From NCBI GenBank assembly GCA_041663005.1, contig JBAZRK010000002.1, positions 205,402-269,401 of the forward strand: a DNA stretch of 64,000 nucleotides, in the 5' to 3' direction. Each line of letters begins with the position of its first letter. The first letter of the stretch is position 1. Below the pieces are notes generated by a model that worked only from the letters and a program-made list of their open reading frames with translations, was not told the origin of the DNA and ran no database searches. Origin of the DNA: Minisyncoccota bacterium (GTDB lineage Bacteria; Patescibacteriota; Minisyncoccia; Phycocordibacterales; UBA9973). Made by a program: the position numbers and the translations under genes. Shown one piece after another: positions 17,119-61,663 of the stretch.

Positions 17119-18390
17119 ATGGAAAATTTCTGGAACAAAATAAAACTGATATGGACAGACTCCAGCTTGCGAAATCGGATTTTTTTTGTGCTCTTTGCCC
17201 TAATCGTCTTCCGACTGCTTGCTGCTATTCCTATTCCAGGGATTGACCAGACGGCGCTTGAGCGTTTCCTTTCCAACAACCAATTCTTTGGCATCCTAAA
17301 CATTTTCTCTGGCGGTGGATTGTCCAACCTTTCTATCATAATGTTGGGCGTTGGTCCTTACATCACTAGCTCTATTATTATGCAGCTCCTTACCTTGATG
17401 GTTCCCGCCTTGAAGCGCCTTTATCACGAAGAAGGGGAAGCAGGTAGGAAAAAGTTTTCTCAGTGGAGCCGATTGATTACTGTTCCCTTGGCCGCAGTGC
17501 AGGGCTTCAGCTTGTTGTTCCTTTTGGAACAGCAAAATATTATTTTCCACCTCAATGCTTTCGACCGAATGACAAATTTGTTTATTGTCGTTGCGGGCTC
17601 TATCCTCCTTATGTGGATAGGGGAGCTCGTTACTGAGTTTGGAATTGGTAACGGAGTTTCTTTAATAATTTTCGCTGGTATCGTCTCACGTCTTCCGACC
17701 GTAGTTGGCGAGCTTGCCTTTCAATTTGATGCTTCCCAGATACCGCTTTACCTCGGGTTTGCTGTTGCTGGTCTTCTAGTCATCGCGGGTATCGTGGTGG
17801 TTACGGAAGCGGAGAGGCCAATTCCAGTTACTTATGCTAAACGTGTCCGCGGAGCGAAAATGTATGGTGGTGGGTCTACATACTTGCCTTTGCGTGTTAA
17901 CCAAGCCGGAGTAATTCCAATAATCTTTGCACTCTCCATCCTCCTCTTCCCTCAGATGATAGGAACTTTCTTGGCGCGTTTTACTAATCCAATTTTACTG
18001 AAAATTTCTGCTGTTCTTTCCGCATTCTCGAACACGAGCGTGCTCTACGCAGTGCTCTACTTTATGTTTGTATTTATGTTCACTTATTTCTATACCGCCG
18101 TTACTTTCGATCCGGAAGCTTTGTCCGAGAATTTACAAAAAAATGGCGCCTTTATTCCAGGTATTCGCCCAGGACCATCTACTTCAGAATATATTTCTAA
18201 GGTTCTTACCCGCATCACCCTCCTCGGGGCCGTATTCCTTGGAGTCATCGCCGTACTTCCAATAATTATGCAGCGAATGACTGGCATCGCCTCACTCGCC
18301 ATCGGGGGAACCTCGGTTCTTATCGTTGTCTCAGTAGTTCTAGACTTACTCAAAAAAGTCGATGCTCAAGTCTCAATGCGAGAGTACTAA
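17119..18390 (+). CDS. secY: preprotein translocase subunit SecY
   Basis: 10-TM profile, SecY plug/hinge motifs, position after rplO. Confidence 0.9.
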   Translation: MENFWNKIKLIWTDSSLRNRIFFVLFALIVFRLLAAIPIPGIDQTALERFLSNNQFFGILNIFSGGGLSNLSIIMLGVGPYITSSIIMQLLTLMVPALKRLYHEEGEAGRKKFSQWSRLITVPLAAVQGFSLLFLLEQQNIIFHLNAFDRMTNLFIVVAGSILLMWIGELVTEFGIGNGVSLIIFAGIVSRLPTVVGELAFQFDASQIPLYLGFAVAGLLVIAGIVVVTEAERPIPVTYAKRVRGAKMYGGGSTYLPLRVNQAGVIPIIFALSILLFPQMIGTFLARFTNPILLKISAVLSAFSNTSVLYAVLYFMFVFMFTYFYTAVTFDPEALSENLQKNGAFIPGIRPGPSTSEYISKVLTRITLLGAVFLGVIAVLPIIMQRMTGIASLAIGGTSVLIVVSVVLDLLKKVDAQVSMREY

Positions 18391-19157
18391 TTGTCTAGCC
18401 TTTTAGCTTCTGCCAGGGCTAATTTAAATACACTTCTTAGTGTTGTGGCTATTTCTTTGGATTCGATTATGACTCCCAATTTTTCTTTCCAAGAGGCAAT
18501 CATTACTTTGTCGTTATAAATTTCTATGTCTGTGGGCACGGGGAACTTATCTCCCGGCACAAGTGAAGTGTCGCGGTATTCTATTGCGTCCCTTGATTTT
18601 CTTTTGCGGGCGAGGGGAGTGTCAGCGACGAAAGTATGCACGAATATTTTTTTCTTGGCGCGGCGTTCATAGTATGTCTCAAAATATTTCGGTAAAGTCT
18701 CATGCATTTCTTCATACGTGGAAGTGGAATAAATATCTCCCTTAGACGTGAGGGAGTCTTCGTACACATGCTCTAATCCCGCAAACCCTTCATAGAAAAA
18801 TACGCGAGGCCTGTCACCCACATTATAGAGTGAAGTAAGCTCGGGTAAAACTTCTTTGGCAGTATCGGCGAGCGTTTTTTGTTTTTTAGCTTGCGCTTCA
18901 AGGTATTCCACCAAGTTGGCAGGGGACAGAGCGGCGTATTCTTCCTTCGGTTCTTTGCCGGAGATTTTTACGAGCTTTTTGCCGACTAGACTATCTAATA
19001 TGACATACCCGGTCGAGCGATTTATGCCCGCCTTCCTAGATATCTCAGCAACAGTACCTCGGCCCAGCTCTAATATGGTCAAATATATGGCTATTTCCTT
19101 GTCTAAAAAGCCACTATCTTTCAATAATTGCTCTATTTTTAACATTTGTTCCTTCAT
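18387..19157 (-). CDS. TrmB-family transcriptional regulator (N-terminal winged HTH)
   Basis: LTILELGRGTVAEISRKAGINRSTGYVILDSLVGKKLV is wHTH-like, with a C-terminal TrmB-like domain. Confidence 0.5.
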   Translation of the reverse strand: MKEQMLKIEQLLKDSGFLDKEIAIYLTILELGRGTVAEISRKAGINRSTGYVILDSLVGKKLVKISGKEPKEEYAALSPANLVEYLEAQAKKQKTLADTAKEVLPELTSLYNVGDRPRVFFYEGFAGLEHVYEDSLTSKGDIYSTSTYEEMHETLPKYFETYYERRAKKKIFVHTFVADTPLARKRKSRDAIEYRDTSLVPGDKFPVPTDIEIYNDKVMIASWKEKLGVIIESKEIATTLRSVFKLALAEAKRLDN

Positions 19158-19332: not shown

Positions 19333-19533
19333 ATGGATGCTCGAAAAGTTCAGCATCTAATCGGCAGACAAGTGTTGGTTGAGATGGCTAGTGGCGCACG
19401 CGGTAACGCAACACTAAAAGCGATCATTCCGCACTGTCTTGATCAGACCAAGTGGATTGCAGTATTCGGCAATGCTAAGGATTGGTATGTCGAAGGGGCT
19501 GAGATTACGTCTATCTTTGCTGTAACTAACTGA
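19333..19533 (+). CDS. small hypothetical protein (66 aa) in a GC-rich island
   Basis: Strong SD AAAGGAGGGAGC directly upstream of the ATG at 19333. GC3-rich codons unlike the neighbouring genes. Confidence 0.45.
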   Translation: MDARKVQHLIGRQVLVEMASGARGNATLKAIIPHCLDQTKWIAVFGNAKDWYVEGAEITSIFAVTN

Positions 19534-19550
19534 GAAGGAGAAAACTGATT

Positions 19551-20129
19551 ATGTTGTGGTATCTTGTGTTTTTCGTCCTCGGCGTCGCGGCAGCTCTCGT
19601 GTCGCCCGCTGGTTCCACTAAGGAGTCGCTTCAGGTGATCGAAGCCGTGTCGCTCACCGCACTCCTCGCATCTCTCTACGTGCCGTTCGCCGGCTTCGCC
19701 AAGAACGAGAAGTGGCAGAAGTTCGTCCTGCAGAATGTGGCGTGCGCGCTCTTCGGTGTCTATGCCGTAGTCGTGTACGAAGACGGCTCGTTCGCTGGCG
19801 TATTGGCCCTCGTGGTGGTCTCGTCTATGCACTTCGCGTACTGGACGAGCTCCATTCACAGTCGTAACTACCGACTCGAGCAGTTTCGGATGGGGTTCGC
19901 GCCGAGAATGCCCATGACCGCTCGATTCGTGGCGATGCTCAATGCTCAGGGGCGAGCGCACCAGGCTGACATCATCGTCTCTTGCACTCTCAGTGGCAAG
20001 ATGTTGCCCGGTTGGGATTTTGCGAGAGGACTCGAGCTTCCTCCCGGCTGCTGGTCCTGGATACACCTCGTCGACGCAGAGATGACGAACGTGTTCACGC
20101 CGCCGTCCGGCGCAGTTGATCATCCGTAG
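19551..20129 (+). CDS. hypothetical membrane protein (about 4 N-terminal TM helices plus a ~90-aa C-terminal domain) in a GC-rich island
   Basis: SD GAAGGAGAA 8 nt upstream. GC about 58-60% versus about 42% in flanking DNA. Hydrophobic N-terminus MLWYLVFFVLGVAAALV…. Confidence 0.45.
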   Translation: MLWYLVFFVLGVAAALVSPAGSTKESLQVIEAVSLTALLASLYVPFAGFAKNEKWQKFVLQNVACALFGVYAVVVYEDGSFAGVLALVVVSSMHFAYWTSSIHSRNYRLEQFRMGFAPRMPMTARFVAMLNAQGRAHQADIIVSCTLSGKMLPGWDFARGLELPPGCWSWIHLVDAEMTNVFTPPSGAVDHP

Positions 20130-20202
20130 TTTCACATCACGACCGCTTGAATGGGGAGGCCACCGGCCACACCTCGCAGGCGGTCTTCTCATTTCTACTC
20201 AA

Positions 20203-20772
20203 TTATTTTTCCAGCCACCTTTGGTATTCGGAGACGACGAGATCAACAACCTGCTCAAGGTTGTTTTTGTTTGTGTCTATGACTAAGTCGAAGTTGTTTT
20301 TGTCGGTATGGTTTTCGATGCCGTAGAGGTCTTTGTATCTTTTTTTCTCACTTAAAAGACGGGCGTCTATTTTCGCCTGGATTTCTTCCGGGGAAGAGGA
20401 GTCCTCGCTCTGCTTGCGAAGTGCATTTTCTTTTAAATTATTTAAAATTCTTTCCTTGGCGATTTCTGGAGGCAAATCCAAATACACTTTAAAAGATTCC
20501 GGTATCCAGTGGAATGCCAAGCGAGAGTCAATGACAATTTTTTCCATTTCTCCTGCCTTCCTCACTTCGGCATCAATGGCTAGGTCTATCGTGTCGTCTG
20601 CTTGGGCTTTAATGCTCAAGTCGTTTACTGTTATGCCCATATCTACCGCAAGCTTTCGCATAAAATCGCCCGAGGAGAAGCGCGTGAAGCCCAGCTTTTC
20701 TGCTACCAAGTCCGCCGTGCTCGACTTGCCAGAGCCTAATGTGCCCGTGATGGTGATGATTTCCTTCTTCAT
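20203..20772 (-). CDS. cmk: cytidylate kinase-like P-loop nucleoside monophosphate kinase
   Basis: N-terminal P-loop ITITGTLGSGKSS; about 190 aa NMP-kinase layout; lies beside adk and pyrH. Confidence 0.45.
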   Translation of the reverse strand: MKKEIITITGTLGSGKSSTADLVAEKLGFTRFSSGDFMRKLAVDMGITVNDLSIKAQADDTIDLAIDAEVRKAGEMEKIVIDSRLAFHWIPESFKVYLDLPPEIAKERILNNLKENALRKQSEDSSSPEEIQAKIDARLLSEKKRYKDLYGIENHTDKNNFDLVIDTNKNNLEQVVDLVVSEYQRWLEK

Positions 20773-20794
20773 AATTTATGCTATTATAACACAT

Positions 20795-21388
20795 ATGCAA
20801 CCGCAAACTTTCATATTTTTCGGCATAGTGGGCTCCGGCAAAGGCACCCAGGTGAAGCTCCTTATGGAGTACTTAAAAGGCAAAGATAGCGCCCCTTGTG
20901 TGTACATAGGAACAGGGGAAATTTTCCGTGCGATTGCGCATTCTACCGACCTGGACGAGAATGTGCGTATGGTGAAGGAACTTCTAGACGCTGGTCGCCT
21001 GATTCCTGATGAAATGACCAACCAGCTTGTGCTTCAGAAAATTGATACGGAATTGTCTGCCGAAAAGCATTGCCTTTTCGATGGATATCCACGGACCGTT
21101 TCTCAATCTGAAGTTTTCGAAGGAAAGATGAAGGAAATTGGGCGCGGAAACATAAAAATAATTTACCTAGAGCTTAGCAAAGAAGAGGCCACGAAAAGAA
21201 ATCTTCTGCGTGGGAGGCATGACGACACCGCTGAAGGCTTGGCGAAAAGATTTGATGAATACGTGAACAAAGTTGTGCCAGCTATGAATTATTTCAAGGG
21301 TAAGAACGGCTATACAATATATGCTATTAACGGCGAGCAGTCGGTCGAAGACGTGCACAGAGAGATACTAGAAAAGATTAATTTATAA
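20795..21388 (+). CDS. adk: adenylate kinase
   Basis: IFFGIVGSGKGTQ P-loop, LFDGYPRT, NMP-binding and LID regions. The track ORF 20333..21388 extends spuriously upstream across the divergent cmk-like gene. Confidence 0.85.
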   Translation: MQPQTFIFFGIVGSGKGTQVKLLMEYLKGKDSAPCVYIGTGEIFRAIAHSTDLDENVRMVKELLDAGRLIPDEMTNQLVLQKIDTELSAEKHCLFDGYPRTVSQSEVFEGKMKEIGRGNIKIIYLELSKEEATKRNLLRGRHDDTAEGLAKRFDEYVNKVVPAMNYFKGKNGYTIYAINGEQSVEDVHREILEKINL

Positions 21389-21390
21389 AT

Positions 21391-22074
21391 ATGCAAGATT
21401 CAATAATAATTTCATTAGGTGGTTCGCTCATAGTGCCCGAAGAGATAGACGTCGGGTTTTTGAAAGAGTTCAAGGCTTTAATACTTGAACACGTAGAGAA
21501 AGGTAAGAAGTTCGTAATCATTACCGGGGGAGGCAAGATAAACAAGCGCTACAATGATGCAGCCCGTTCGATTGCCGGCAATCCCACTGACGAAGATTTA
21601 GATTGGATAGGAATTGCGGCGCTTAAATTAAACGCCGAGCTCCTCCGAGTTATATTTGCGGACTACGCCAACAAGAAAGTGATGGACAATCCTTCAGAAA
21701 ATTTTACCTTCGAAAAATCTATTGTCATTGGCTCAGCCTATGAGCCAGGGAAAAGTTCTGACTGGGATGCTGTTCACGCTGCCAAGACAATCGGTGCGAA
21801 AAAGATAATAAATCTATCGAACACTGATTATGTTTATGATTCTGATCCGAAAATTAATCCTAACGCTCAAAAAATAGAATCCATTTCTTGGGCCGATTAC
21901 CGCAAAATAATTCCAGCAGAATGGACCTCACGACTTAATTCGCCATTTGACCCCATTGCTTCGAAGATGGCCCAAGAGCTCGGCATCGAGGTGGACATAC
22001 TAAACGGCAAGAACATAGAGAATCTTAAAAAATGCCTCTCTGGCGAGAATTTCTTGGGAACTAAAATAAAATGA
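21391..22074 (+). CDS. pyrH: UMP kinase (archaeal-type, amino-acid-kinase fold)
   Basis: IIISLGGSLIVPE N-terminal motif; 227 aa. Confidence 0.6.
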   Translation: MQDSIIISLGGSLIVPEEIDVGFLKEFKALILEHVEKGKKFVIITGGGKINKRYNDAARSIAGNPTDEDLDWIGIAALKLNAELLRVIFADYANKKVMDNPSENFTFEKSIVIGSAYEPGKSSDWDAVHAAKTIGAKKIINLSNTDYVYDSDPKINPNAQKIESISWADYRKIIPAEWTSRLNSPFDPIASKMAQELGIEVDILNGKNIENLKKCLSGENFLGTKIK

Positions 22075-22850
22075 TAACGATAAAAACTCCGGAAGAAATA
22101 AAAATAATCCGCGAATGCGGTCGGAGGTTGGCAACCGTGCTGTATAAGGTTAAAGATATGATAGCGCCGGGAATTTCAACCAAGGACCTAGACGTGTATG
22201 CGGAAAAGCTTATCCGAGATATGGGGGATGTCCCAGCTTTTTTAGGTTATCGACCGGAGGGCGCTCGCATTCCTTTTCCGGCGACACTTTGCGTTTCAGT
22301 TAATGATGAAGTGGTGCACGGTATTCCACGCAAAGATCGAATCTTAAAAGAGGGAGACATCGTGTCTATAGACCTTGGTGTTAAACACAAAGGCCTGTTT
22401 ACCGATATGGCGCTCACCGCGCCGGTGGGCCGGGTAAGCGATACAGATTCGAAATTAATGAAGCTCACCGAGCAAGCCCTGGAAGCCGGCATTTTCGCCG
22501 CGCGAGCGGGGAGTAGGGTTGGGGACATTGGCCATGCCATCGAGAGTTTCGTGCGGGGACAGAAAGGGCAGAAATATGGCATCGTGGAAGTTCTCGCCGG
22601 CCACGGCGTAGGACACAAAATTCATGAAGACCCTTTCGTGCCGAATTTTGGCCGAAAAGGTACAGGAGCGAAGCTAGTGCCGGGAATGATACTTGCCCTA
22701 GAGCCTATGCTTAATCTTGGAACTAAAGAAGTAACTATGGATGATGATGAATATACCTTCCGAACCGCTGACGGCAAAAGGAGCGCCCATTTTGAACATA
22801 CGATACTCATCACAGAAGGTGAACCTGAGATACTGACAAAAATTTCTTAA
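22071..22850 (+). CDS. map: methionine aminopeptidase type I
   Basis: IKTPEEIKIIRECGR, pita-bread fold metal ligands (D…D…H…E…E). Confidence 0.85.
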   Translation: MITIKTPEEIKIIRECGRRLATVLYKVKDMIAPGISTKDLDVYAEKLIRDMGDVPAFLGYRPEGARIPFPATLCVSVNDEVVHGIPRKDRILKEGDIVSIDLGVKHKGLFTDMALTAPVGRVSDTDSKLMKLTEQALEAGIFAARAGSRVGDIGHAIESFVRGQKGQKYGIVEVLAGHGVGHKIHEDPFVPNFGRKGTGAKLVPGMILALEPMLNLGTKEVTMDDDEYTFRTADGKRSAHFEHTILITEGEPEILTKIS

Positions 22851-22902
22851 AGTATACTTTAAAAATTTAGTTTTTTGTATTTTTTGTTATATAATTAAAC
22901 TA

Positions 22903-25668
22903 ATGAATCCCTCTTTTATAAAAGAGATGCCGAAATTCAAGACTCCAGAGGAGGAGCTGGATTATCTTCGTGCCCACGTTAAGAAGCGCGAAGAGGAACT
23001 TATAGAAATAGGACACACTGAACGCACTGCAGAGATGGCTACGCGCGAGGTTATGGGCGAATACAGAACGGTCCCGGTGGAGAAAGCCGTGCATAAAGAT
23101 AATGTTTTGAAAGAAGACGAAACCGAAGGCATTGTGCTTAAACTTAAACCTGAACCGCATGATACCGTGATGGAAGAGCTTTTGGGGATTGTGATTACTA
23201 AAGGAATCCGAAATGCGCTTTCTGTAGTTGAGGCAATGGGCAATCCGCATATCGATGACGACTTTCATCGTTTACTCATTCAATATTTCAAAACTGGGCA
23301 AATCACTGGGTTTAAAGAAGGTACTCCGATGTATCGGTCTCTTAATATGACTCTTTTTGAAATAACTTTGCCGCCGCCACAAGACGAAGCCGACAAGTCG
23401 AAGGGCTTTAAAGAATTTATCGGGGCCATGGAGCAGTTTTATGCCGGTATGCAGTCTATCTCCGAAGGCAAGAGTAATGAGAAAGAAAATTATTTCACCA
23501 TAGAGGTGGCGCTTGGCAATCAAAGCGATGAAGTGGTGATATATGCCGCTGTGCCCAATAAATATTTGTCTCTTTTTGAAAAACAAATCCTGGCTTTCTA
23601 TCACGATGCGAAAATCCGAGAGGTAACCGACGACTACAACATTTTCAACGAGCAGGGCGCCTCGACAGGGGCTTATGCTGTGTTCACTGAACGCCCAGTA
23701 ATGCCCATTAAGACCTATGACGAGATCGAGCACGACCCGATGAACCCTATTCTAAACGTTTTCTCCAAGCTACAGAAGAGCGGTGAAGGAGCGGCTATTC
23801 AATTCCTCATAGCTCCGGCGGGGGATAAATTTATCAATGAGTTTCATATGATTCTAGATGATGTCAAAGACGGCATTTCAGTTAAACATGCGGCAGACAA
23901 TTTCTATAAATGGCGTAGTGCTCTCAAGACTGCCGGCAAGGATCTCTTGTTTGGGCTGAAAGAAAAAAACGAAGAAGAAAAAAAGGAAAAGTATATGAAA
24001 GGCAGGCGCGCCGTGGATGAAGGTGCCGCAGAAAAAATAGGCAACAAAATAAAGAGCACCATAATGAAAGCGAATATCCGCGTGATTGCCTCCGGCGAAA
24101 CGAAAGAGCGCGCAGAAGCAATTCTTCGTGAAATAGAATCTTCCTTCAATCAATTTTCTGCCGCAGCTTCAAATTCTTTCATCTTCCAAGAGGCGAAGGG
24201 CGGCGACTTGAAAAAACTTTTCCACGATTTTTCTTACCGAGCTTTTGCACACGAAAAGATTCTCCCGATGAACTTGAAAGAACTTTCTTCCGTTTTCCAC
24301 TTCCCGGTAGGTATGGGTAGTCAGCCGCAACTCAAAGAAGCCAAGGCGGGCATTGCGCCAGCACCGATAGAAATGGGAACCGAAGGCATAGTCTTGGGCA
24401 TAAATAGCTACCGAGGCCGAGATACGGAAGTGCACTTAGCCCGAGAAGACAGGATGAGACATATGTATGTAATAGGGCAAACTGGAACCGGTAAGACGAA
24501 CATTATGCTCAATATGATTACTCAGGATATCCGTAACGGTGACGGGTGCTGCTACATTGACCCTCATGGCACAGATATCCAGACGATCCTCTCTAGAATT
24601 CCTAAGGAGCGCATTGACGATGTTATCTATTTCGATCCCGCCTATACTGCCCGTCCAATGGGACTCAACATGCTCGAATATGATCCAAAGTACCCTGAGC
24701 AGAAAACCTTCGTGGTGAACGAAATGATGGGAATTTTCAACAAACTTTTCGATATGAAAGTCGGAGGCGGAGCGATGTTCGAACAATATTTCCGAAACAG
24801 CGCCTTTCTCGTGATGGAAGACCCTTCTTCCGGTTCGACCCTCCTTGAGATTACTCGAGTGCTTGGTGACAAAGAATTTCGCGATTTGAAATTGTCCCGT
24901 TGCAAGAATCCAATCATAAAACAATTTTGGGTTTCGGCGGAGCAGACTACGGGTGACCAGTCGCTCGCAAACTTCGTGCCCTATATTTCTTCCAAATTCG
25001 ACAACTTTATTTCCAACGACATAATGCGTCCAGTGGTGCTTCAGCAGAACTCGGTTTTTAATTTTAGAAAAATTATGGACGAGAAGAAAATTCTCTTGGT
25101 CAATCTTTCGAAAGGTAGACTGGGCGACATCAATGCGAACCTCATAGGTCTCGTGCTTGTTGGCAAAATTCAAATGGCCGCACTGTCTCGTGTAGATATG
25201 TTCGGCAAGCCGATGAATGATTTCTATTTGTATATCGATGAGTTCCAGAACGTTACCACGGACTCTATCGCTTCAATTCTCTCAGAAGCGCGAAAGTATA
25301 GATTGTCTCTCAACATTGCCCACCAGTACATTACCCAGCTCGAAGAGAATATCAAGAATGCTGTTTTTGGTAACGTCGGCTCTATGGCGGTGTTCCGTGT
25401 GGGTACCGAAGACGCGACATTCCTCGAGCCGAAATTCAAACCGCAATTTACCGCGCACGACATTACTAAACTTGATAACTTTAATGCGTATATGAGCATG
25501 CTAGTGAAAGGTCAGCCTACCAAACCTTTCAACATCCGCACGCTAGCGCCCGAGACTGGAAATCCAGAAATAGTGGACAGCTTGAAAGAACTTTCATATG
25601 TTAAATACGGTCGTGATCGTGAAGAAGTGGAGAAGGAAATAATGTCGCGATACAATACGATGGAATAA
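22903..25668 (+). CDS. soluble P-loop ATPase with a TraD/TrwB/VirD4-like (type IV coupling protein-like) C-terminal half and a novel ~480-aa N-terminal domain
   Basis: Walker A HMYVIGQTGTGKT, DPHG motif (compare DPKG in coupling proteins), Walker B LYIDEFQNV, and ARKYRLSLNIAHQYITQL (compare RKxxxxxxxxxQSxxQL). No predicted TM helices. Confidence 0.5.
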   Translation: MNPSFIKEMPKFKTPEEELDYLRAHVKKREEELIEIGHTERTAEMATREVMGEYRTVPVEKAVHKDNVLKEDETEGIVLKLKPEPHDTVMEELLGIVITKGIRNALSVVEAMGNPHIDDDFHRLLIQYFKTGQITGFKEGTPMYRSLNMTLFEITLPPPQDEADKSKGFKEFIGAMEQFYAGMQSISEGKSNEKENYFTIEVALGNQSDEVVIYAAVPNKYLSLFEKQILAFYHDAKIREVTDDYNIFNEQGASTGAYAVFTERPVMPIKTYDEIEHDPMNPILNVFSKLQKSGEGAAIQFLIAPAGDKFINEFHMILDDVKDGISVKHAADNFYKWRSALKTAGKDLLFGLKEKNEEEKKEKYMKGRRAVDEGAAEKIGNKIKSTIMKANIRVIASGETKERAEAILREIESSFNQFSAAASNSFIFQEAKGGDLKKLFHDFSYRAFAHEKILPMNLKELSSVFHFPVGMGSQPQLKEAKAGIAPAPIEMGTEGIVLGINSYRGRDTEVHLAREDRMRHMYVIGQTGTGKTNIMLNMITQDIRNGDGCCYIDPHGTDIQTILSRIPKERIDDVIYFDPAYTARPMGLNMLEYDPKYPEQKTFVVNEMMGIFNKLFDMKVGGGAMFEQYFRNSAFLVMEDPSSGSTLLEITRVLGDKEFRDLKLSRCKNPIIKQFWVSAEQTTGDQSLANFVPYISSKFDNFISNDIMRPVVLQQNSVFNFRKIMDEKKILLVNLSKGRLGDINANLIGLVLVGKIQMAALSRVDMFGKPMNDFYLYIDEFQNVTTDSIASILSEARKYRLSLNIAHQYITQLEENIKNAVFGNVGSMAVFRVGTEDATFLEPKFKPQFTAHDITKLDNFNAYMSMLVKGQPTKPFNIRTLAPETGNPEIVDSLKELSYVKYGRDREEVEKEIMSRYNTME

Positions 25669-25713: not shown

Positions 25714-26190
25714 ATGACAAGACCAAATAGTGAAAAATCTTTAATAATCATTAAGCCGGACGCTATTCAGAGGAACCTTACCGGGGAGGTGATAAGGCGA
25801 TTCGAGAATAAAGGGCTCAAGATTATCGGCCTCAAGATGATGAGCATCAAGGATGCAGTGTTAGATGAACATTATGCCCATATCAAAGATAAACCTTTCT
25901 TCCCGGGGATTAGGGATTTTATGAAATCTTGCCCGGTTATCGTTATGGCCGTGGAAGGAATTAATGCCATCTCCGCAATTCGCATAATTGTCGGGCCTAC
26001 GAAGGCCTGGGAGGCTGATGCAGGCACAATTCGGGGAGACTTTTCGCTCTCAACTCAATCGAACATCGTTCACGCTTCAGACTCTGTGGAAAACGGTGAG
26101 GTAGAGGTCAAAAGATTTTTCTCTTCTGATGAAATCTTTGAGTACAAAAAAATAGATACGGATTTCGTCTATGCGGAGCATAAGGAATAA
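25714..26190 (+). CDS. ndk: nucleoside diphosphate kinase
   Basis: IIKPDAIQRNL…HASDS motif with the active-site His. Confidence 0.9.
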   Translation: MTRPNSEKSLIIIKPDAIQRNLTGEVIRRFENKGLKIIGLKMMSIKDAVLDEHYAHIKDKPFFPGIRDFMKSCPVIVMAVEGINAISAIRIIVGPTKAWEADAGTIRGDFSLSTQSNIVHASDSVENGEVEVKRFFSSDEIFEYKKIDTDFVYAEHKE

Positions 26191-26463
26191 ATGTTCCAGC
26201 TTGTTTTTGTCTTAAAATTGTGTTTTTCTGAAAAAAATATTGCCAAAATTTTTTAAGAGAGTATAGTGAAAGTAGGGTTATTTCCGATTATTACCTAGAA
26301 CACTAATTTATGGGAGAGTCGATCGCGATTGGCCTTGGCCCTTCTCGTCTCTCACCCACTTAGCTTTTAAGCTACGGTAATATATCAGAGATAGTCCTAA
26401 GAAGAACTCCGCGCTGTGAATACAGTTGGCGGATTTTTTCTTGGAAATCCTGTATAATCATCA

Positions 26464-26869
26464 GATGGGTGGCAGAAAACTTCTTAAATTACTCAGTGTT
26501 CTTATTTTCGTTATATTTTTTATAAATTTTTCAGCGAACACATTCTACTGGTATTCTTCTATTGGGTATTTTGATACTATCGTTCATTATTTTGGGGGAG
26601 CATGGGTTGGATTTTTTACTTTATATTTATCCTCTGAAGAGTTACCGTCAGCTCGCTTGGTAATAAAAGTTCTTATCAGTGTTTTGTTGGTAGGAGTCTG
26701 CTGGGAAGCATATGAGCTGATAATAGATAAAGTTGTTAGCGGAAACTTCTTGAACCCCCTCGACACTGTTTCTGACCTCTTCTTCGATTTCGCGGGAGGT
26801 GCTAGCGCATTGTTGTATTATATTTATAAAATTATGTCTTTACGCACGAGTAAGGTACAATCTCAGTAA
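26464..26869 (+). CDS. hypothetical small membrane protein
   Basis: Track ORF 26426..26869. The ATG at 26464 follows an extended -10 TGTATAAT at about 26449, so the mRNA is probably leaderless. 3-4 TM helices. Confidence 0.4.
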
Positions 26870-28233
26870 TGCAAAAAAAAGCAAAAATTACATTTCACGG
26901 GGGGACGGATACGGTAACCGGAGCAAATTTCCTCCTCGAGATTGATAACAAGAAAATTCTCATAGACTGTGGTTTAACGCAGGGGACGAAGGTCGCCGAC
27001 GATGTGAATTGGAGCCCCTTCGCATATGACCCCAAGAGCATAGATTTACTTTTTATCACCCACGGACACGTGGATCACTTGGGGCGTGTCCCTAAGCTTA
27101 TTTCGGAGGGTTTTCGCGGGGCAATATATTCTACAGAGCCGACGAAGGGCCTAGCGCTTCCTATGCTCGAAGATACGGCAGGGATTTTAAGTGGCAACAC
27201 TGATTTAAATTTAGATAAAATTTATACTGCAGAAAATGTGAAGTTAGCACTTTCGCTCTGGCACGGATTTAAATATCATGAAAAAATAAATATTACTCCG
27301 GATTTGGAAGTAACCTTCTTGAACGCCGGTCACATATTAGGCTCAGCGATGATTTTGTTTTCATATAACGGCAAGAAAATTCTTTTCACCGGAGATTTGG
27401 GCAATAATCCTTCGCCTCTTCTGCCGGATCCGGATGTAGTGACCGATATAGACTATTTAATTATGGAGTCAGTGTATGGCGACAGGAATCACGAATCTCG
27501 CGACACTCGCCGCAGCAAGCTGGCACAGGTGATTCAAGATAATGATAAAAGACGAGGAACCTTAATTATCCCTACTTTTTCACTTGAACGTTCACAAGAG
27601 TTGCTGTTTGAATTGGACGCGCTCTTGGAAGAAAACCGCATTCCGGTTATGCCTGTATTTTTTGATTCTCCGCTGGCGATTCGTTTGACTGATGTTTTCA
27701 AACAATACAAAGAATATCTAAATGAAAAGGCGCAGAAGGCAGTTTCGCCTGGTAAGTACTTATTTGATTTCCCGGGCCTGCACAACACCCTGAGGTCGGA
27801 AGAGTCCAAGCTCATAGTTGATACGCCTAATCCTAAAATAGTCATTGCGGGGAGCGGAATGTCCACTGGTGGGCGGGTGGTGCATCATGAGAGGCATTAT
27901 CTACCAGACGCGAACAATACGCTCTTACTAACCGGCTACCAAGCCGTAGGCACACCAGGGAGACTGATTGAGGAAGGACTCAAGAAAGTTCACATTACCG
28001 GGGAAGATGTGATTATCCGAGCGCACATAGAAAAAATTTCTGGTTATTCTGGGCACAAAGATAGCGATGGGCTCCTGAACTTCGTTGCGGATACGGCCGA
28101 CCAATTGAAAAAAGTTTTCGTGGTGATGGGGGAGCCGAAGTCCTCGATGTTCCTCGTGCAGAAACTACGAGACAATCTTGCGATAGAAGCCTATGCACCG
28201 GAGACAGGGAAGAGTGTGGAGCTTCCTTGCTAG
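26869..28233 (+). CDS. MBL-fold metallo-hydrolase, beta-CASP family ribonuclease (RNase J/CPSF-like)
   Basis: HGHVDHLG metallo-beta-lactamase motif with a beta-CASP-like C-terminal half; 454 aa. Confidence 0.6.
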   Translation: MQKKAKITFHGGTDTVTGANFLLEIDNKKILIDCGLTQGTKVADDVNWSPFAYDPKSIDLLFITHGHVDHLGRVPKLISEGFRGAIYSTEPTKGLALPMLEDTAGILSGNTDLNLDKIYTAENVKLALSLWHGFKYHEKINITPDLEVTFLNAGHILGSAMILFSYNGKKILFTGDLGNNPSPLLPDPDVVTDIDYLIMESVYGDRNHESRDTRRSKLAQVIQDNDKRRGTLIIPTFSLERSQELLFELDALLEENRIPVMPVFFDSPLAIRLTDVFKQYKEYLNEKAQKAVSPGKYLFDFPGLHNTLRSEESKLIVDTPNPKIVIAGSGMSTGGRVVHHERHYLPDANNTLLLTGYQAVGTPGRLIEEGLKKVHITGEDVIIRAHIEKISGYSGHKDSDGLLNFVADTADQLKKVFVVMGEPKSSMFLVQKLRDNLAIEAYAPETGKSVELPC

Positions 28234-30485: not shown

Positions 30486-30935
30486 ATGGCTGCTTATGCT
30501 GAAAACAGAAAAGCGCGCTTTAATTACGAAATCCTCGAAAAATACGAGGGAGGTATTGAGCTTTTGGGTACAGAAGTAAAGTCCGTGCGCAACGGACAGA
30601 TGTCTCTTGAGGGCGCCTTCGTCGTGGTGCGAGGCGGGGAAGCATTCCTCATAAATGCCAACATCCCTCCATATCAAGCCAAAAACGCGGGAGAAGGATA
30701 CGACCCACTACGTAACAGGCGAATCTTGTTGACGAAGAAAGAGATTAAAGAACTCTCAGGGAACGAGAAGAATAAGAGTTTGACAATAGCGCCTATTTCA
30801 GTGTATAATAAAGGAAGAAAAATCAAGGTAGAGATTGCTTTGGTGAAGGGAAAGAAAAAAACAGATAAAAGGCAGACTATTCAAAAAAGAGAAACTGATC
30901 GCGAGGTCAGGAGAGAGTACAAAAGAGGTTCGTAA
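30486..30935 (+). CDS. smpB: SsrA-binding protein SmpB
   Basis: NRKARFNYEILEKYEGGIELLGTEVKSVRNG is the SmpB signature. Confidence 0.85.
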   Translation: MAAYAENRKARFNYEILEKYEGGIELLGTEVKSVRNGQMSLEGAFVVVRGGEAFLINANIPPYQAKNAGEGYDPLRNRRILLTKKEIKELSGNEKNKSLTIAPISVYNKGRKIKVEIALVKGKKKTDKRQTIQKRETDREVRREYKRGS

Positions 30936-30956
30936 GAACATTGATAAGAAAATATG

Positions 30957-31354
30957 GGGATGCAAGGCATAGACAGTTGGCTCATTGTCATCGATGCATG
31001 TCGAGAATGAACGTAATCTCGTGAAAATTCGTTCAATAGCTTAATTGCAAAATTAGCTTCCAAAACTAAAGCTGTTGTTTCTTCATACTTTAGTATGAAG
31101 GACTTTGTTTTAGTTCCAGCTTTCGCGTAAGCCAAGGTTGGCGTCTCTCTTATAGACTTCCGATATATAAGCTGAGGTGTAATATTATCGGGATAGGGGA
31201 AAGAATGTCTCGGTTTTCTCCCGAAACAAAGAGACTCGGTTAAAAAATATTTGGCACGCTTCATAATTTTTTAATCTAAACCAAAAAGCGCGATAAACAT
31301 GTAGACTTCCTTACAAAAACCTTCTGCACGGGGATTCGATTTCCCCCATCTCCA
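30957..31354 (+). ncRNA. ssrA: tmRNA (ssrA), tRNA-Ala-like ends, candidate 27-aa tag reading frame
   Basis: The 5' GGGGAUG (30957-30963) pairs with the 3' CAUCUCC (31347-31353), including the G3·U70 wobble that is the alanine identity element. Discriminator A at 31354. T-arm GGGGA-UUCGAUU-UCCCC at 31330-31346. An AAUAGC element sits before a GCA resume codon at 31047, and the frame runs to UAA at 31128-31130 encoding AKLASKTKAVVSSYFSMKDFVLVPAFA. Lies immediately downstream of smpB. Confidence 0.55.
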
Positions 31355-31396
31355 CACATTTTAATTTTAAAACATGAGCTTAACCTTTCATGGATT

Positions 31397-33388: not shown

Positions 33389-33462
33389 CCGTCCTTAGCT
33401 CAGTTGGTTAGAGCACAGAGCTTATACCTCTGGGGTCCTTGGTTCGAATCCAAGAGGACGGA
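33389..33462 (+). tRNA. tRNA-Ile with anticodon UAU (manual fold)
   Basis: Acceptor CCGTCCT/AGGACGG, D-arm GCTC-AGTTGGTTA-GAGC, anticodon stem CAGAG/CTCTG with loop CTTATAC (anticodon TAT), T-arm CTTGG-TTCGAAT-CCAAG, discriminator A; CCA not encoded. Confidence 0.6.
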
Positions 33463-36508: not shown

Positions 36509-36607
36509 ATGCTCTACACAAGAAAAGGGGACGGCGGCACCACCAAGACTTTTGGTTGCAATAGTATTAGAATATATACATGTCATTTTTATTGCAGGTT
36601 GCGATAA
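36509..36607 (+). pseudogene. 5' fragment of a pduO-type adenosyltransferase gene (17 codons), duplicate of the 38024 gene start
   Basis: 36509-36562 is 47/54 nt identical to 38024-38077 and encodes MLYTRKGDGGTTKTFGC (identical for 17 aa); the frame then runs into unrelated AT-rich sequence. Confidence 0.55.
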
Positions 36608-38007
36608 TATTTAGCCTATATTTATTTATAAGAGTAACTATTAGTTTACTTCTTAAATTTCGTATTTTTGTAAAAAATTGGTTTTTTCAAGGAGTAATTT
36701 TCAGTGTAGGTTTTTATTTTTTTGTAAGTATTTTATATAAGTGGTTGTACCACTTAACAGGACCAGCCTCTTTTGAGACATACAATTCTTATCCGTTCCT
36801 GTTTAGCGCTGTGTCCGGATTCGGTTTACTTCTAGGCATTGACGCATTTACCGCCTTTTTTTGTTCCGTAATTTTTTTTGAAAGTTATAAGCATGTAACC
36901 CCTAAAACATTTTCTTCTAAATGGTTTGTATTTATACCTAACCTTATTTATCTAATCCTCACTTTTATCTTCATAAGAATGGAAGGCTCTGGCGAAGCCG
37001 CGGGCTGGGGGATAATAGGCTTGATTTTTACTCTGCCCCTCGCGATTCTTTTTCCGATGGTTTGGATATTTTTCAGCGAAAAATCTGAAATTAAAGTTCA
37101 GTCTGTTGAAAAGGCAAATGAACCAGCGAATACCCAGCACCAGATTCATTGGTGGTGGCTTGTAGTTGTGCTTGCGTCATTTATAGCTGTCTTGGTTTGG
37201 CAAGAAATATCCATTAATCGTGCCGTTAACCAGAGTCAACAATACGACGCTGATGCGGTTAAAAGATTTCAGGAAGAACAAAATAAAATTGATTTATATG
37301 AAAGTCAACCTCCGTCGCCCAACCCGATATTTGATAATGCCATTAAAAAAGCCAGATATGCGCTGGCGGAGCATTTAGATGTACATGAATCTGCTGATGA
37401 TATATCTATAAAATCTTATACGCTTAAATCACCAGAAGAATGGATGTATTTTCAGTTCTGTAAAGAATTTTCTTTGGGCTACGTATTATTCCAAAATTTT
37501 CCTAGTGGGCAAAAAATTTCCACCGAAGGAAACAGTAAAGTTTTATCTTCGCGCCAAATAATTCTAACAGCAGAAAACAAGCTTCCTGCTTTAATATCTG
37601 TTCCCGTACATATTGCTTCACCTGTTCCTACCACCTTATCCTTTGATTACCAGTGGAGCGGGAATGAGAGGACCGAGCTAGATATTCTTGTTAATGGAAA
37701 CCGTGTAAATTGGGCCTATTTACTTACGCCTAGCCTAGGTAGTAAAGGATTTGCCAGAGGTATTTATTTAGCAAACCAATTTTATGAAACTAAGCCAGGC
37801 TGGAATACCTTTACTTTTAAATTGTCTCCATATGTAAATGGCACGGCCACAATATCTAATGTTGAGTTAGTGGATGATGGGTTGATACCTGGGTGTACCA
37901 CCAGCCGAAGCGAATATAGGCAAGTCGTATATACCTATAATAATATCGATTACTATTATTTGTTTGATAGTACTGGAAATTATTTCCGAATGGGTGATTA
38001 TAGATAA
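36580..38007 (+). CDS. hypothetical membrane protein (about 6 TM helices plus a ~270-aa C-terminal, probably extracytoplasmic, domain) on an AT-rich insertion
   Basis: 475-aa ORF; very AT-rich (about 30% GC) relative to its neighbours; flanked by the duplicated pduO 5' end. Confidence 0.5.
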   Translation: MSFLLQVAIIFSLYLFIRVTISLLLKFRIFVKNWFFQGVIFSVGFYFFVSILYKWLYHLTGPASFETYNSYPFLFSAVSGFGLLLGIDAFTAFFCSVIFFESYKHVTPKTFSSKWFVFIPNLIYLILTFIFIRMEGSGEAAGWGIIGLIFTLPLAILFPMVWIFFSEKSEIKVQSVEKANEPANTQHQIHWWWLVVVLASFIAVLVWQEISINRAVNQSQQYDADAVKRFQEEQNKIDLYESQPPSPNPIFDNAIKKARYALAEHLDVHESADDISIKSYTLKSPEEWMYFQFCKEFSLGYVLFQNFPSGQKISTEGNSKVLSSRQIILTAENKLPALISVPVHIASPVPTTLSFDYQWSGNERTELDILVNGNRVNWAYLLTPSLGSKGFARGIYLANQFYETKPGWNTFTFKLSPYVNGTATISNVELVDDGLIPGCTTSRSEYRQVVYTYNNIDYYYLFDSTGNYFRMGDYR

Positions 38008-41399: not shown

Positions 41400-41488
41400 C
41401 GGAGCCGGCTGGATTCGAACCAGCGGTGCCTTTTAAAGGGCACACCTCTTTAGCAAAGAGGCACGTTAGACCACTCTGACACGGCTCC
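41400..41488 (-). tRNA. tRNA-Ser (anticodon GCU), long variable arm
   Basis: Reverse complement GGAGCCG…CCTCT-TTGCTAA-AGAGG…GCTGG-TTCGAAT-CCAGC-CGGCTCC-G; anticodon GCT; the D-arm is irregular. Confidence 0.55.
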
Positions 41489-42245: not shown

Positions 42246-42833
42246 ATGGACATACAGCGCCCACAAGCTCACCAACCCATACCCTCGCACGCCAAGCGGG
42301 TGTTTAAAGGAGTGATGTTTGATGTTTATCAGTGGGAGCAGGAAATGTTTGACGGTTCGCGGGCGATTTTTGAAAAAGTAAAACGTGCGGATACAGTGGT
42401 GGTCTTTGCGGTATTGCCAGACGGTAAAATAATTCTGACTAAACAAGAACAGCCTGGCCGTCCGCCGTTTGTGGGTGCTACCGGCGGGAGAATTGATGAA
42501 GGCGAAGATGTCTTGACCGCAGCCAAGCGTGAGCTCCTGGAAGAGAGTGGCTACATAGCGGAGGAATTTATTTTATGGGACGCCAGATTTCCGGTAGGTA
42601 AGGTAGACTGGGTGGTTTATACCTTCATCGCCAAGGGTTTGAAAAAGATTGCGGACCTGAGCCTCGACGCCGGAGAAAAAATAGAATTGATTACTCTCAC
42701 GCTGGACGAACTTATAGACACAGCGCTCGACAAGAAAACTCATTTTGCGGAGCAAGAGATACTCGAGAAATTTTATCAGGCAAAATACGTTCCGGAAAAG
42801 AGAAAAGAATTGGAGGAATTGTTTAAACCTTAG
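42246..42833 (+). CDS. NUDIX hydrolase
   Basis: Nudix box GGRIDEGEDVLTAAKRELLEESG. Confidence 0.7.
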   Translation: MDIQRPQAHQPIPSHAKRVFKGVMFDVYQWEQEMFDGSRAIFEKVKRADTVVVFAVLPDGKIILTKQEQPGRPPFVGATGGRIDEGEDVLTAAKRELLEESGYIAEEFILWDARFPVGKVDWVVYTFIAKGLKKIADLSLDAGEKIELITLTLDELIDTALDKKTHFAEQEILEKFYQAKYVPEKRKELEELFKP

Positions 42834-42849
42834 ATCAATAATAAAATAC

Positions 42850-43734
42850 ATGGACAATCTCAGGCCTTTTAAGCCGAAAAAAGAAAAGCAAGAAGTGGAC
42901 GGTATCACAGTTGAAAGTAGAAGAGAGCCTACAGAGCAAGAGACGTTGACCGAAGCTCAGCGAGACTATGCAAACGAACTGCAAGAGAGGCTAGACGGCA
43001 TGGCCGCTGAAACAATTTTAGCAGAGCCTGATTCACCTGATTTTTCAAACTTAAATTTGGAAAAAATACGTAGTTTCACATCTCGCGGTAGCTCCAAAAT
43101 TCTCTTTGAAAATATTTTGTTCCAACAAGGTAATAAAATTTCACCAGAACAACAGCAAATACTTCGTTTATATATCTCACTAATTCAACATGATCGGTTA
43201 GGAAAAGAAGGGGGCGGATTATACCCGAACGACCCAAAATATTCTTCGGAATCTTTCAACCTGGAACAGCAAATAAGAGAGAAAGAAATAAAATTATGCC
43301 GGGAGGCTTTGGGCGACGAATTGGCTAAGCTTGTGGATGGTATAGATAAATATGTTCGAGACAATTGGGGCAGTACATCTTGGCAAGAAGAAATCGCAAC
43401 TCGTAGAGCAGAGGCTATGCCAGTTACAGATGAAGCCACAGACCTGCTGGATCTTTCAGAAATTGTCTACTCAATGAGTATGACAGAAGAAGGCACTGGA
43501 GATTTAGAAGCAGCACGTATTCGGCGGCAAATACAGGAAGCACGAGAAGCACTTCCCGAGGCTGTAAAAAAGTGGAATTTTCAAACAGATAATATCTTTT
43601 TAAAAAATGCACTGGAAGTGAATCACAATCAAGAAATAAGTTATCAACATGACCTTGCTATGGCGACTATGAAATTTTTAGATGACAAGGTGAAATCCAG
43701 ATTAGCGGAAATGAAAATGGGGGAGCAAGAATAA
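42850..43734 (+). CDS. hypothetical protein
   Basis: Track ORF 42745..43734. The first ATG past the Nudix stop is at 42850 (MDNLRPF…). No known motif. Confidence 0.4.
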   Translation: MDNLRPFKPKKEKQEVDGITVESRREPTEQETLTEAQRDYANELQERLDGMAAETILAEPDSPDFSNLNLEKIRSFTSRGSSKILFENILFQQGNKISPEQQQILRLYISLIQHDRLGKEGGGLYPNDPKYSSESFNLEQQIREKEIKLCREALGDELAKLVDGIDKYVRDNWGSTSWQEEIATRRAEAMPVTDEATDLLDLSEIVYSMSMTEEGTGDLEAARIRRQIQEAREALPEAVKKWNFQTDNIFLKNALEVNHNQEISYQHDLAMATMKFLDDKVKSRLAEMKMGEQE

Positions 43735-57492: not shown

Positions 57493-61133
<3,641 letters not shown>

Positions 61134-61578: not shown

Positions 61579-61663
61579 CGGAGGGTAGGAGATTCGAACT
61601 CCTGGTGGATTGCTCCACACACGCTTTCCAAGCGTGCGCACTAGACCGCTATGCGAACCCTCC
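61579..61663 (-). tRNA. tRNA-Ser (anticodon GGA), long variable arm
   Basis: Reverse complement GGAGGGT-TC-GCA-TAGCGGTCTAG-TGC-G-CACGC-TTGGAAA-GCGTG-…-AGGAG-TTCGAAT-CTCCT-ACCCTCC-G. Confidence 0.65.

Follow-up and report, generated by a model that had tools for sequence, protein, structure and literature searches.

The gene at 22903..25668 (+) of a 64,000-nucleotide (nt) stretch of DNA from a Minisyncoccota bacterium that is Nomurabacteria-like among the Patescibacteria, or CPR (contig JBAZRK010000002.1, positions 205,402 to 269,401; the whole stretch is here called the window) was found to encode a three-module P-loop ATPase that stands outside both canonical families of the VirB4/VirD4 superfamily and bears one hallmark of each, a coupling-type motor and a VirB4-type N-terminal domain. 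Ahead of these two modules it carries a dedicated partner of the ATPase, revealed by a natural gene fusion. The window protein is the Nomurabacteria/Paceibacteria-clade version of a two-gene module, consisting of a small partner and an ATPase anchored by one N-terminal transmembrane helix, which is widespread in Patescibacteria, chromosomal and located among housekeeping genes. In our best reading, held with moderate confidence, this module is an essential, envelope-directed VirB4/VirD4-type motor with a dedicated adaptor.

The open reading frame (ORF) is complete, with an ATG start and 921 codons followed by a stop, as deduced from the ORF list and its translation, and encodes 921 amino acids (aa); it and all motifs quoted in a first-pass annotation of the window are present. 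A chance ORF is excluded because more than 2200 homologues occur in the databases, including an identical protein (P0001, annotated with PF26449 and PF12696), and hundreds are 84–90% identical to the window protein. The GC content is even across the gene and matches that of the flanks.

Module architecture of the window protein

The C-terminal ~440 aa had been taken in the first-pass annotation for a type IV coupling protein-like ATPase, and for the last ~430 aa this assignment stands. In Pfam hidden Markov model (HMM) searches, PF12696 (TraG-D_C) scored 24.7 bits against a cut-off of 22 and PF10412 (TrwB_AAD_bind) 22.8 against 20.5, and DUF87 (HerA; 19.6 bits, cut-off 23.2) and PF01580 (FtsK; 12.2 bits, cut-off 24) fell short of theirs. 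Across 32 diverse family members, TrwB_AAD_bind matched all 32, TraG-D_C and DUF87 30 each, and T4SS-DNA_transf 13 (best E 3e-12). A family profile run against all PDB sequences ranked TrwB first (E 2.3e-7), ahead of DotL (1.6e-4) and HerA (~1e-2), and retrieved no VirB4 chain at E<=1. At the level of sequence these matches support an ATPase half of the VirD4/TraD/TrwB coupling-protein type.

The conservation alignment comprised 32 sequences of 29–62% identity, in which G525, G528, K531, D553-P554-x-G556, D779-E780, E795, R797-K798 and Q808 are invariant. As the invariant residues include those of Walker A and Walker B as well as downstream positions, the ATPase looks catalytically competent and intact. 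Helices alone were predicted at ~598–727, between the Walker A and Walker B strands, in a full-length AlphaFold2 model with moderate to low confidence in that region. In coupling proteins an all-alpha domain sits at this place.

The same motor is found elsewhere. Representative proteins P0220–P0270 are 40–48% identical to the window ATPase half, most of them with unrelated N-terminal regions of ~190–610 aa and none with an N-terminal membrane helix; P0220 and P0257 begin with a response-regulator receiver domain, and the DUF8128 HMM matched only P0242 among the 18 tested. The motor module is thus present in other architectures.

The ~480 aa preceding the ATPase had been described as one uncharacterised, novel domain. 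A region of that length is there, but it is neither single nor novel, as it consists of a fused partner (residues 1–140) and a second module (residues 141–492), for which the Pfam annotation precomputed for P0001 and for every homologue listed gives PF26449/DUF8128. The core shared by the family covers query residues ~143–918, in proteins of ~790–860 aa, and in a whole-library search residues 1–140 were covered by the closest clade only.

The DUF8128 segment was modelled from an alignment of 25 sequences (21–55% identity), with a predicted local distance difference test score (pLDDT) of 84.2 and a predicted template modelling score of 0.83. When this model was searched with Foldseek, 14 of the 14 matches at E<=1e-3 were TrwK/VirB4 chains (best E 8.5e-7, probability 0.99–1.00). 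As the segment contains no P-loop, and no other P-loop ATPase was among the matches, the match must be to the N-terminal domain of VirB4, and DUF8128, as modelled, has the fold of that domain. A sequence search of the PDB with DUF8128 gave nothing significant.

VirB4 (TrwK of R388; PDB 7o42, 7o41 and 8rtb) resembles the window protein in that an N-terminal alpha/beta domain of ~350 aa is followed by an ATPase of ~430 aa. The unfused form of the family, with its N-terminal helix and a small upstream gene, brings to mind the pairing of virB3 with virB4 and the known fusions of these two genes. Unlike VirB4, none of the 32 members is matched by CagE_TrbE_VirB (PF03135), which is absent both from the window-protein matches and from the 25 families listed for these members, and AAA_10 (PF12846) matches seven of the 32, weakly; the partner, moreover, is soluble and charged, whereas VirB3 is a membrane protein.

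Residues 1–140 are helical and charged, without a transmembrane segment; the AlphaFold2 helices lie at 15–131 and pLDDT in this block is mostly ~70–89. Unfused relatives have, directly upstream of the ATPase gene and in the same orientation, a small ORF of ~110–155 aa that overlaps the start of that gene by 4 nt or ends up to ~180 nt before it. An HMM built from these separate ORFs alone matches window residues 16–122 (E 2e-6); of the 43 long forms counted, among them the window protein, it matches 42 at the N-terminus, and it finds an upstream partner ORF in 25 of 41 short-form loci (several of the other 16 have no upstream sequence to search). BLASTP of the window N-terminus against two separate upstream ORFs gave E 3e-6 and 1e-5. 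A conserved motif, KGIxxAL..(x)NPHIDDDFHRLL, is found at about residues 100–125 of the window protein, with which the partner C-terminus, ...KG(I/V)xxAVxVAxxhxDPYhLDxFHDxL..., is aligned (KGIRNALSVVEAMGNPHIDDDFHRLL).

Residues 1–140 are accordingly a gene fusion, because the homologous protein is a separate gene directly upstream in other Patescibacteria. With the separate-ORF HMM no locus among the 43 long and 41 short forms was found to have the partner both fused and separate, and no separate copy is present within the 64-kb window. At least 668 members of the partner family are in the databases, every one of them 'hypothetical' and without a Pfam domain, and no Pfam family was found for the partner, the fused N-terminus or the neighbouring ORFs of no assigned function.

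Two further kinds of small ORF were seen upstream of DUF8128 ATPases. The second kind (150–194 aa, C-terminus ...WLKIIPGVNxFFLEQEAKIKTD) precedes anchored ATPases of other clades and has no homology to the window-type partner detectable with hhalign. The third, of the Southlakia-like locus type, is matched by neither partner HMM. In all three kinds a disordered N-terminal part is followed by a short C-terminal part that, by eye, is probably helical.

Transmembrane segments were predicted from hydropathy only (Kyte-Doolittle scale, 19-residue window, threshold 1.6). In the window protein the values peak at 1.54, at residue 743 within the ATPase core, so that no transmembrane helix is predicted, as the first-pass annotation had held. 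By the same measure, nearly all members of ~790–860 aa have one strong hydrophobic helix (mostly 2.1–3.4) in the first ~50 residues, with DUF8128 directly after it, and members of ~880–935 aa have no N-terminal hydrophobic helix. Since the unfused relatives carry this helix, solubility was acquired secondarily, in a single clade. A neighbour-joining tree built on the shared core (80 sequences) has the 43 fused anchor-less forms as a monophyletic group with no short form inside and the 37 anchored forms outside; from this monophyly it follows that the partner was fused to the ATPase once, replacing the anchor. The fused lineage takes in Nomura-, Taylor-, Zambryski- and Adlerbacteria-type genomes.

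At the other end of the protein, some members of ~1270–2000 aa (P0170, P0177, P0178, P0182, P0184, P0186, P0189, P0199 and P0201) have long Pro/Ala-rich, apparently disordered C-terminal tails with the motifs PPPIGAPPVD, ITDITGG, HKVIQPLEPIV and a terminal GEVYVDExGNVIIGE, which may be tethers or recruitment motifs. No domain was recognised by eye in the C-terminal extensions of the 1100–2000-aa members.

The window protein can be set beside the coupling proteins VirD4, TraD, TrwB, Cagbeta and DotL. It shares with them PF10412 and PF12696 above cut-off, TrwB as the best solved relative, the motif order Walker A, DP(H/K)G, Walker B and RK...Q and, with many of them, a gene located away from virB4; a helical insertion between Walker A and Walker B is predicted with moderate to low confidence. 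It differs in that they have a two-helix membrane domain, where its relatives have one helix and it has none; in the 350-aa VirB4-type domain and the fused partner that precede its ATPase; and in that its gene is chromosomal, housekeeping-linked and probably essential. HerA has a HAS-barrel and NurA, whereas the window protein has an N-terminal domain matching the VirB4 fold and no NurA neighbour. Unlike FtsK/SpoIIIE, it gave no match to the alpha, gamma or 4TM Pfam families.

Distribution, conservation and possible function

At least 4999 clusters at 50% identity match the family with E<=1e-30, and at least 598 confirmed loci were found in a scan of one genome per GTDB species. The best 80 of these at least 598 loci bear titles that name Patescibacteria, or metagenome-bin titles that are vague or mislabelled, the taxon names of many such bins being unreliable.

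Neighbouring genes were compared in 83 related loci, up to 8–10 kb on each side. The housekeeping cluster reported in the first-pass annotation (adk, a pyrH-like gene and map upstream, ndk downstream) was recovered with Pfam, and across the 83 loci the homologues likewise stand next to housekeeping genes, not solely beside genes of conjugative or integrative elements. About half of the fused-form loci repeat the order secY-(cmk)-adk-map-X-ndk-...-RNase J-like. For anchored forms the partner is the only frequent immediate neighbour, the others being housekeeping or envelope genes that differ by lineage. A DUF5663 gene of ~100 aa (cluster 18; e.g. L001 9216-9518) occurs in 11 loci, just upstream of the partner in eight anchored ones and within a few kb in three fused ones; none is present in the window.

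Compared with the closest related locus (L009), the whole protein is 85% identical and the ATPase part 93%, with SecY at 81% and Map at 72%; at greater distances the divergence of the ATPase protein follows that of SecY and Map. The family thus evolves as slowly as SecY and is under strong purifying selection.

These data bear on the possibility that the gene is left over from a conjugative or integrative element, or encodes an ATPase of anti-phage defence of the HerA or MADS mad8 kind, and happens to be inserted after map. The names of its Pfam families are conjugation-related, PADLOC gave a mad8 match (E 1e-11) and weak HerA matches were obtained, and ATPase-only relatives with other N-terminal domains, some of them receiver domains, exist among the representative proteins. 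The mad8 match is partial, however, being confined to the ATPase core, and the neighbours are housekeeping genes. Against insertion speak also the flank-like GC content, the map-ndk position repeated in about half of the fused-form loci, the clean split of fused from unfused forms in the core tree, conservation equal to that of SecY, and the finding of no relaxase, integrase, NurA, methyltransferase or other defence partner nearby, as does the probable Southlakia counterpart, which is flagged as core and Patescibacteria-enriched and is essential (PMC10633639). Such an origin is very improbable, and a mobile-element or defence origin was ruled out on context and conservation.

The counterpart is drawn from the transposon-insertion sequencing (Tn-seq) of Southlakia epibionticum ML1 (Wang et al. 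2023, Table S1; PMC10633639). There SEML1_0142, a ~1000-aa 'TraM recognition domain-containing' ATPase with its P-loop domain from about residue 380, is scored ES/ES/ES and flagged as a core, Patescibacteria-enriched family, and SEML1_0141, a 'hypothetical' protein of 139 aa on the same strand that ends 12 nt upstream of it, is scored GD/ES/ES with zero insertions after selection; the main text of that paper mentions neither gene by number. Locus L090 encodes a DUF8128 ATPase of 994 aa, ~35% identical to the window protein, in the order L20(-), L35(-), IF3(-), YifB(-), a gap, a 121-aa membrane protein(+), a 210-aa ORF(+) and the ATPase(+). This agrees gene for gene with SEML1_0136 (L35) to SEML1_0142, a seven-gene colinearity (the Southlakia rows compared do not extend to L20). 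As synteny and lengths match, SEML1_0142 is a probable member of the DUF8128 family, and by this synteny we infer that the counterpart and its small upstream gene are essential in Southlakia. The pair resembles the window gene in having a small ORF just before a ~1000-aa ATPase and differs in that its two genes are separate, whereas those of the window are fused; the upstream ORF of the syntenic L090 has no detectable homology to the window-type partner.

In the same data set a second coupling-protein-like gene, SEML1_0293 (921 aa, no small upstream partner), is scored NE/NE/NE, a genuine FtsK is present (SEML1_0096, GD/ES/ES), and the cluster that encodes a type IV secretion system (T4SS) is essential and contains no recognisable coupling protein (PMC10633639). 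In a survey of 3035 Patescibacteria genomes (Quinonero-Coronel et al. 2025; PMC12102498), 5713 VirD4-type homologues were found in 2918 genomes, only 148 of these homologues near virB4, and VirB4 in 2417 genomes. Members of the DUF8128 family are probably among these homologues.

The first-pass annotation had proposed a motor for DNA uptake or processing, acting like ComFA or FtsK together with the type IV pilus/ComFC competence set. The pilus cluster and comFC are indeed in the window, and the ATPase family includes DNA translocases; weak NCBIfam matches to the archaeal DNA-import ATPases CedB/CedD were obtained at the P-loop, and RmuC lies ~4 kb away in 11 related loci. The proposal found no support: the pilus and comF genes are 20 kb off here, and within 8–10 kb in the 83 loci PilM and ComFC were each found once and PilB, PilT, PilC and PilD never, nor was a DNA-binding domain identified in the window protein. 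In Southlakia, deletion of comEC abolishes competence and viability is kept (FEMS review, PMC12857230), whereas both the ATPase identified by synteny and the small partner encoded before it are essential (PMC10633639), which, if the orthology holds, argues against a competence-only role. The genuine essential FtsK of Southlakia counts against this explanation as well, and on the same ground the candidate of an FtsK substitute was ruled out. A role in DNA uptake is thus improbable.

In the favoured reading, that of an essential envelope-directed motor, the ATPase would probably assemble into a ring on the cytoplasmic side of the membrane, as the analogy to TrwB, VirB4 and HerA suggests; docking or regulation of this ring would fall to the partner and the VirB4-like domain, and ATP hydrolysis would power the assembly of, or the passage of substrates through, an envelope-spanning machine. 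The chromosomal, relaxase-less T4SS of Patescibacteria, a system with its genes elsewhere in the genome and no recognised coupling protein in its own cluster, may have in this family the coupling ATPase, or the second energising ATPase, that it is missing. This is the most economical function, as both are essential in Southlakia and the relatives of the family are all T4SS ATPases.

Several points weigh against this reading. Within 8–10 kb in the 83 loci there are neither T4SS genes (VirB4, VirB6, VirB8, pilins) nor a second related ATPase, and neither was recognised in the 64-kb window, for which the first-pass annotation had already noted the lack of VirB-type genes. No VirB3, VirB6 or VirB8 gene was found adjacent to the ATPase gene by neighbour clustering and Pfam annotation of the neighbours, and no recurrent relaxase within 8–10 kb in the 83 loci and none in the window. 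In the window protein ~490 soluble residues precede the ATPase, where the canonical two-helix membrane domain, and any anchor, is lacking. NCBIfam matches to TraD/VirD4/TrbC are partial and far below the curated equivalog thresholds (best TIGR03743, 46.9 bits against a cut-off of 366), and the full-length AlphaFold2 model has low confidence in the ATPase half. The orthology of SEML1_0142 is probable from synteny and length rather than from sequence alignment, and the link to a T4SS is drawn from two things, family resemblance and parallel essentiality. That the protein forms oligomers, that its fused form associates with the membrane and that it hydrolyses ATP are predictions. Finally, as VirD4-type homologues occur in 2918 genomes and VirB4 in 2417, many genomes may have the ATPase without a T4SS, though the bins are incomplete.

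The last point is also consistent with an autonomous essential machine that is independent of the T4SS, was exapted from the VirB4/VirD4 lineage and would power an envelope or polymer-handling process specific to Patescibacteria, e.g. taking up or exporting a macromolecule that the host-dependent lifestyle requires. Such a machine would suit an ATPase gene that was never found beside T4SS genes in the loci compared and has a dedicated small partner of its own, of three apparently unrelated kinds across clades, as well as a fused clade without membrane anchor and the conserved short motifs in the disordered Pro/Ala-rich tails of some members; exaptation was raised by the authors of the survey, who state that it cannot be excluded (PMC12102498). 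However, coupling-protein genes are often away from virB4 in ordinary systems too (PMC12102498), incompleteness of the genomes could account for part of the excess over VirB4, and the conserved neighbours suggest no other machine or substrate, bar the weak DUF5663 link in 11 loci. An autonomous machine is on balance possible and clearly less probable than the envelope-directed motor.

More tentatively still, the VirB4/VirD4 superfamily would have in the DUF8128 ATPases a third and undescribed branch, in which a VirB4-type N-terminus, a coupling-type motor and an adaptor form an essential T4SS-independent machine of Patescibacteria. The hybrid architecture might then be a preserved VirB4-VirD4 intermediate.

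Other features of the window

The coordinates of the gene, its modules and motifs, its neighbours and the upstream ORFs of related loci are collected in Table 1.

Table 1 Features of the ATPase gene, of its surroundings in the window and of upstream ORFs in related loci. Positions are nt of the window unless residues of the 921-aa protein or another locus are named.
Feature	Position	Strand	Description or basis
Whole gene	22903..25668	+	three-module VirB4/VirD4-superfamily ATPase, 921 aa
Partner-like module, residues 1-140	22903..23322	+	homology to separate upstream small ORFs
DUF8128 (PF26449) domain, residues 141-492	23323..24378	+	predicted alpha/beta fold like VirB4/TrwK N-terminal domain
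P-loop ATPase, coupling-protein type, residues 493-921	24379..25665	+	Pfam and PDB profile search
Walker A HMYVIGQTGTGKT	residues 520-532, nt 24460-24498	+	motif present in translation
IDPHG	residues 552-556 (DPHG 553-556)	+	motif present in translation
Walker B LYIDEFQ	residues 776-782 (LYIDEF 776-781, nt 25228-25245)	+	motif present in translation
EARKY...AHQ	residues 795-808	+	ATPase-half motif
ARKYRLSLNIAHQYITQL	residues 796-813	+	motif present in translation
secY	17119-18390	+	Pfam
TrmB-like regulator	18387-19157	-	Pfam
Gene of no assigned function	19443-20192	-	
cmk-like	20203-20772	-	Pfam
adk, ADK domain inside ORF	20333-21388	+	Pfam
pyrH-like amino-acid kinase	21391-22074	+	Pfam
map	22071-22850	+	Pfam
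ndk	25714-26190	+	Pfam
ORF without Pfam match	26426-26869	+	
beta-CASP RNase J-like	26869-28233	+	Pfam
tRNA	33389-33462	+	
tRNA	41400-41488	-	
tRNA	61579-61663	-	
Second-kind upstream ORF	L074 3701-4153		
Second-kind upstream ORF	L080 7063-7647		
Second-kind upstream ORF	L081 7303-7818		
Second-kind upstream ORF	L084 782-1288		
Second-kind upstream ORF	L086 7108-7602		
Third-kind upstream ORF	L089 3139-3771		210 aa, Southlakia-like locus type
Third-kind upstream ORF	L090 9364-9996		210 aa, Southlakia-like locus type

Upstream of the ATPase gene, a TATAAT hexamer is located at 22890-22895, 7 nt 5' of the ATG, and no obvious Shine-Dalgarno sequence is seen in 22884-22902; read from the sequence, this placement suggests that the gene has its own promoter with a very short or absent leader. 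A consensus promoter and terminator scan around the gene was uninformative and did not call the hexamer.

As listed, the adk ORF begins with TTG, encodes 351 aa and overlaps the oppositely oriented cmk-like gene. As the ADK domain covers its residues 163–324 only, the start of adk is probably near 20795. A pyrH-like gene separates adk from map in the closest relatives, L009–L013, and was found in no others; in L007 adk stands directly before map, so that the pyrH-like gene looks like a lineage-specific insertion in the secY-adk-map string.

Downstream, a candidate unannotated structured RNA was found at 26240-26445 (+), between ndk and the following ORF without Pfam match. A promoter-like TTGCCA-16-TATAGT (26240-26267) is followed by ~185 nt that fold well (z -4.0) and end in a hairpin and a U-run. 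The element is 76–83% identical over ~190–250 nt in L009, L010, L011 and L015, with shorter matches in L007/L008 and L012–L014; its consensus has an outer helix in two segments around two hairpin arms, and 14 of the 36 predicted pairs carry compensatory changes among nine sequences. Rfam gave no match even at E<=1. The element could act on the downstream gene as a riboswitch-like leader; the gene in that place encodes DUF2238 in L007.

Elsewhere the 64-kb window contains translation genes, tmRNA, ftsH, ribonucleotide reductase, recG, comFC and a type IV pilus cluster (the last two ~20 kb downstream of the ATPase gene, their presence having been reported correctly in the first-pass annotation) and ligA. 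An ORF at 30486-30935 (+) lies directly before the tmRNA (30956-31357; Rfam 115 bits), and its counterpart in the syntenic L007 is SmpB. Five + strand ORFs had no Pfam match at E<=1e-4, namely 255-1181 (308 aa), 36580-38007 (475 aa), 42745-43734 (329 aa), 44444-45649 (401 aa) and 57493-59124 (543 aa).

Meaning for Patescibacteria

The family is already catalogued in databases as DUF8128. A full-text literature search returned no paper mentioning DUF8128 or PF26449, and no description was found of the hybrid architecture, the partner gene, the fusion, the loss of the anchor or the link to the essential SEML1_0141/0142 pair. Southlakia, on which the evidence of essentiality is based, is the only patescibacterium with Tn-seq data.

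Patescibacteria account for a large share of bacterial diversity, and few of their conserved lineage-specific proteins have known roles. Through the VirB4 fold, the partner revealed by fusion and the loss of the anchor, an anonymous 'TraM recognition domain protein' is turned into a source of testable hypotheses. If the third-branch machine exists, it could drive the macromolecule exchange required by a host-dependent, biosynthetically minimal lifestyle. The fused, anchor-less window protein is a convenient soluble target for structural and biochemical work, and the role of the orphan coupling-protein-like ATPases of Patescibacteria becomes directly testable.

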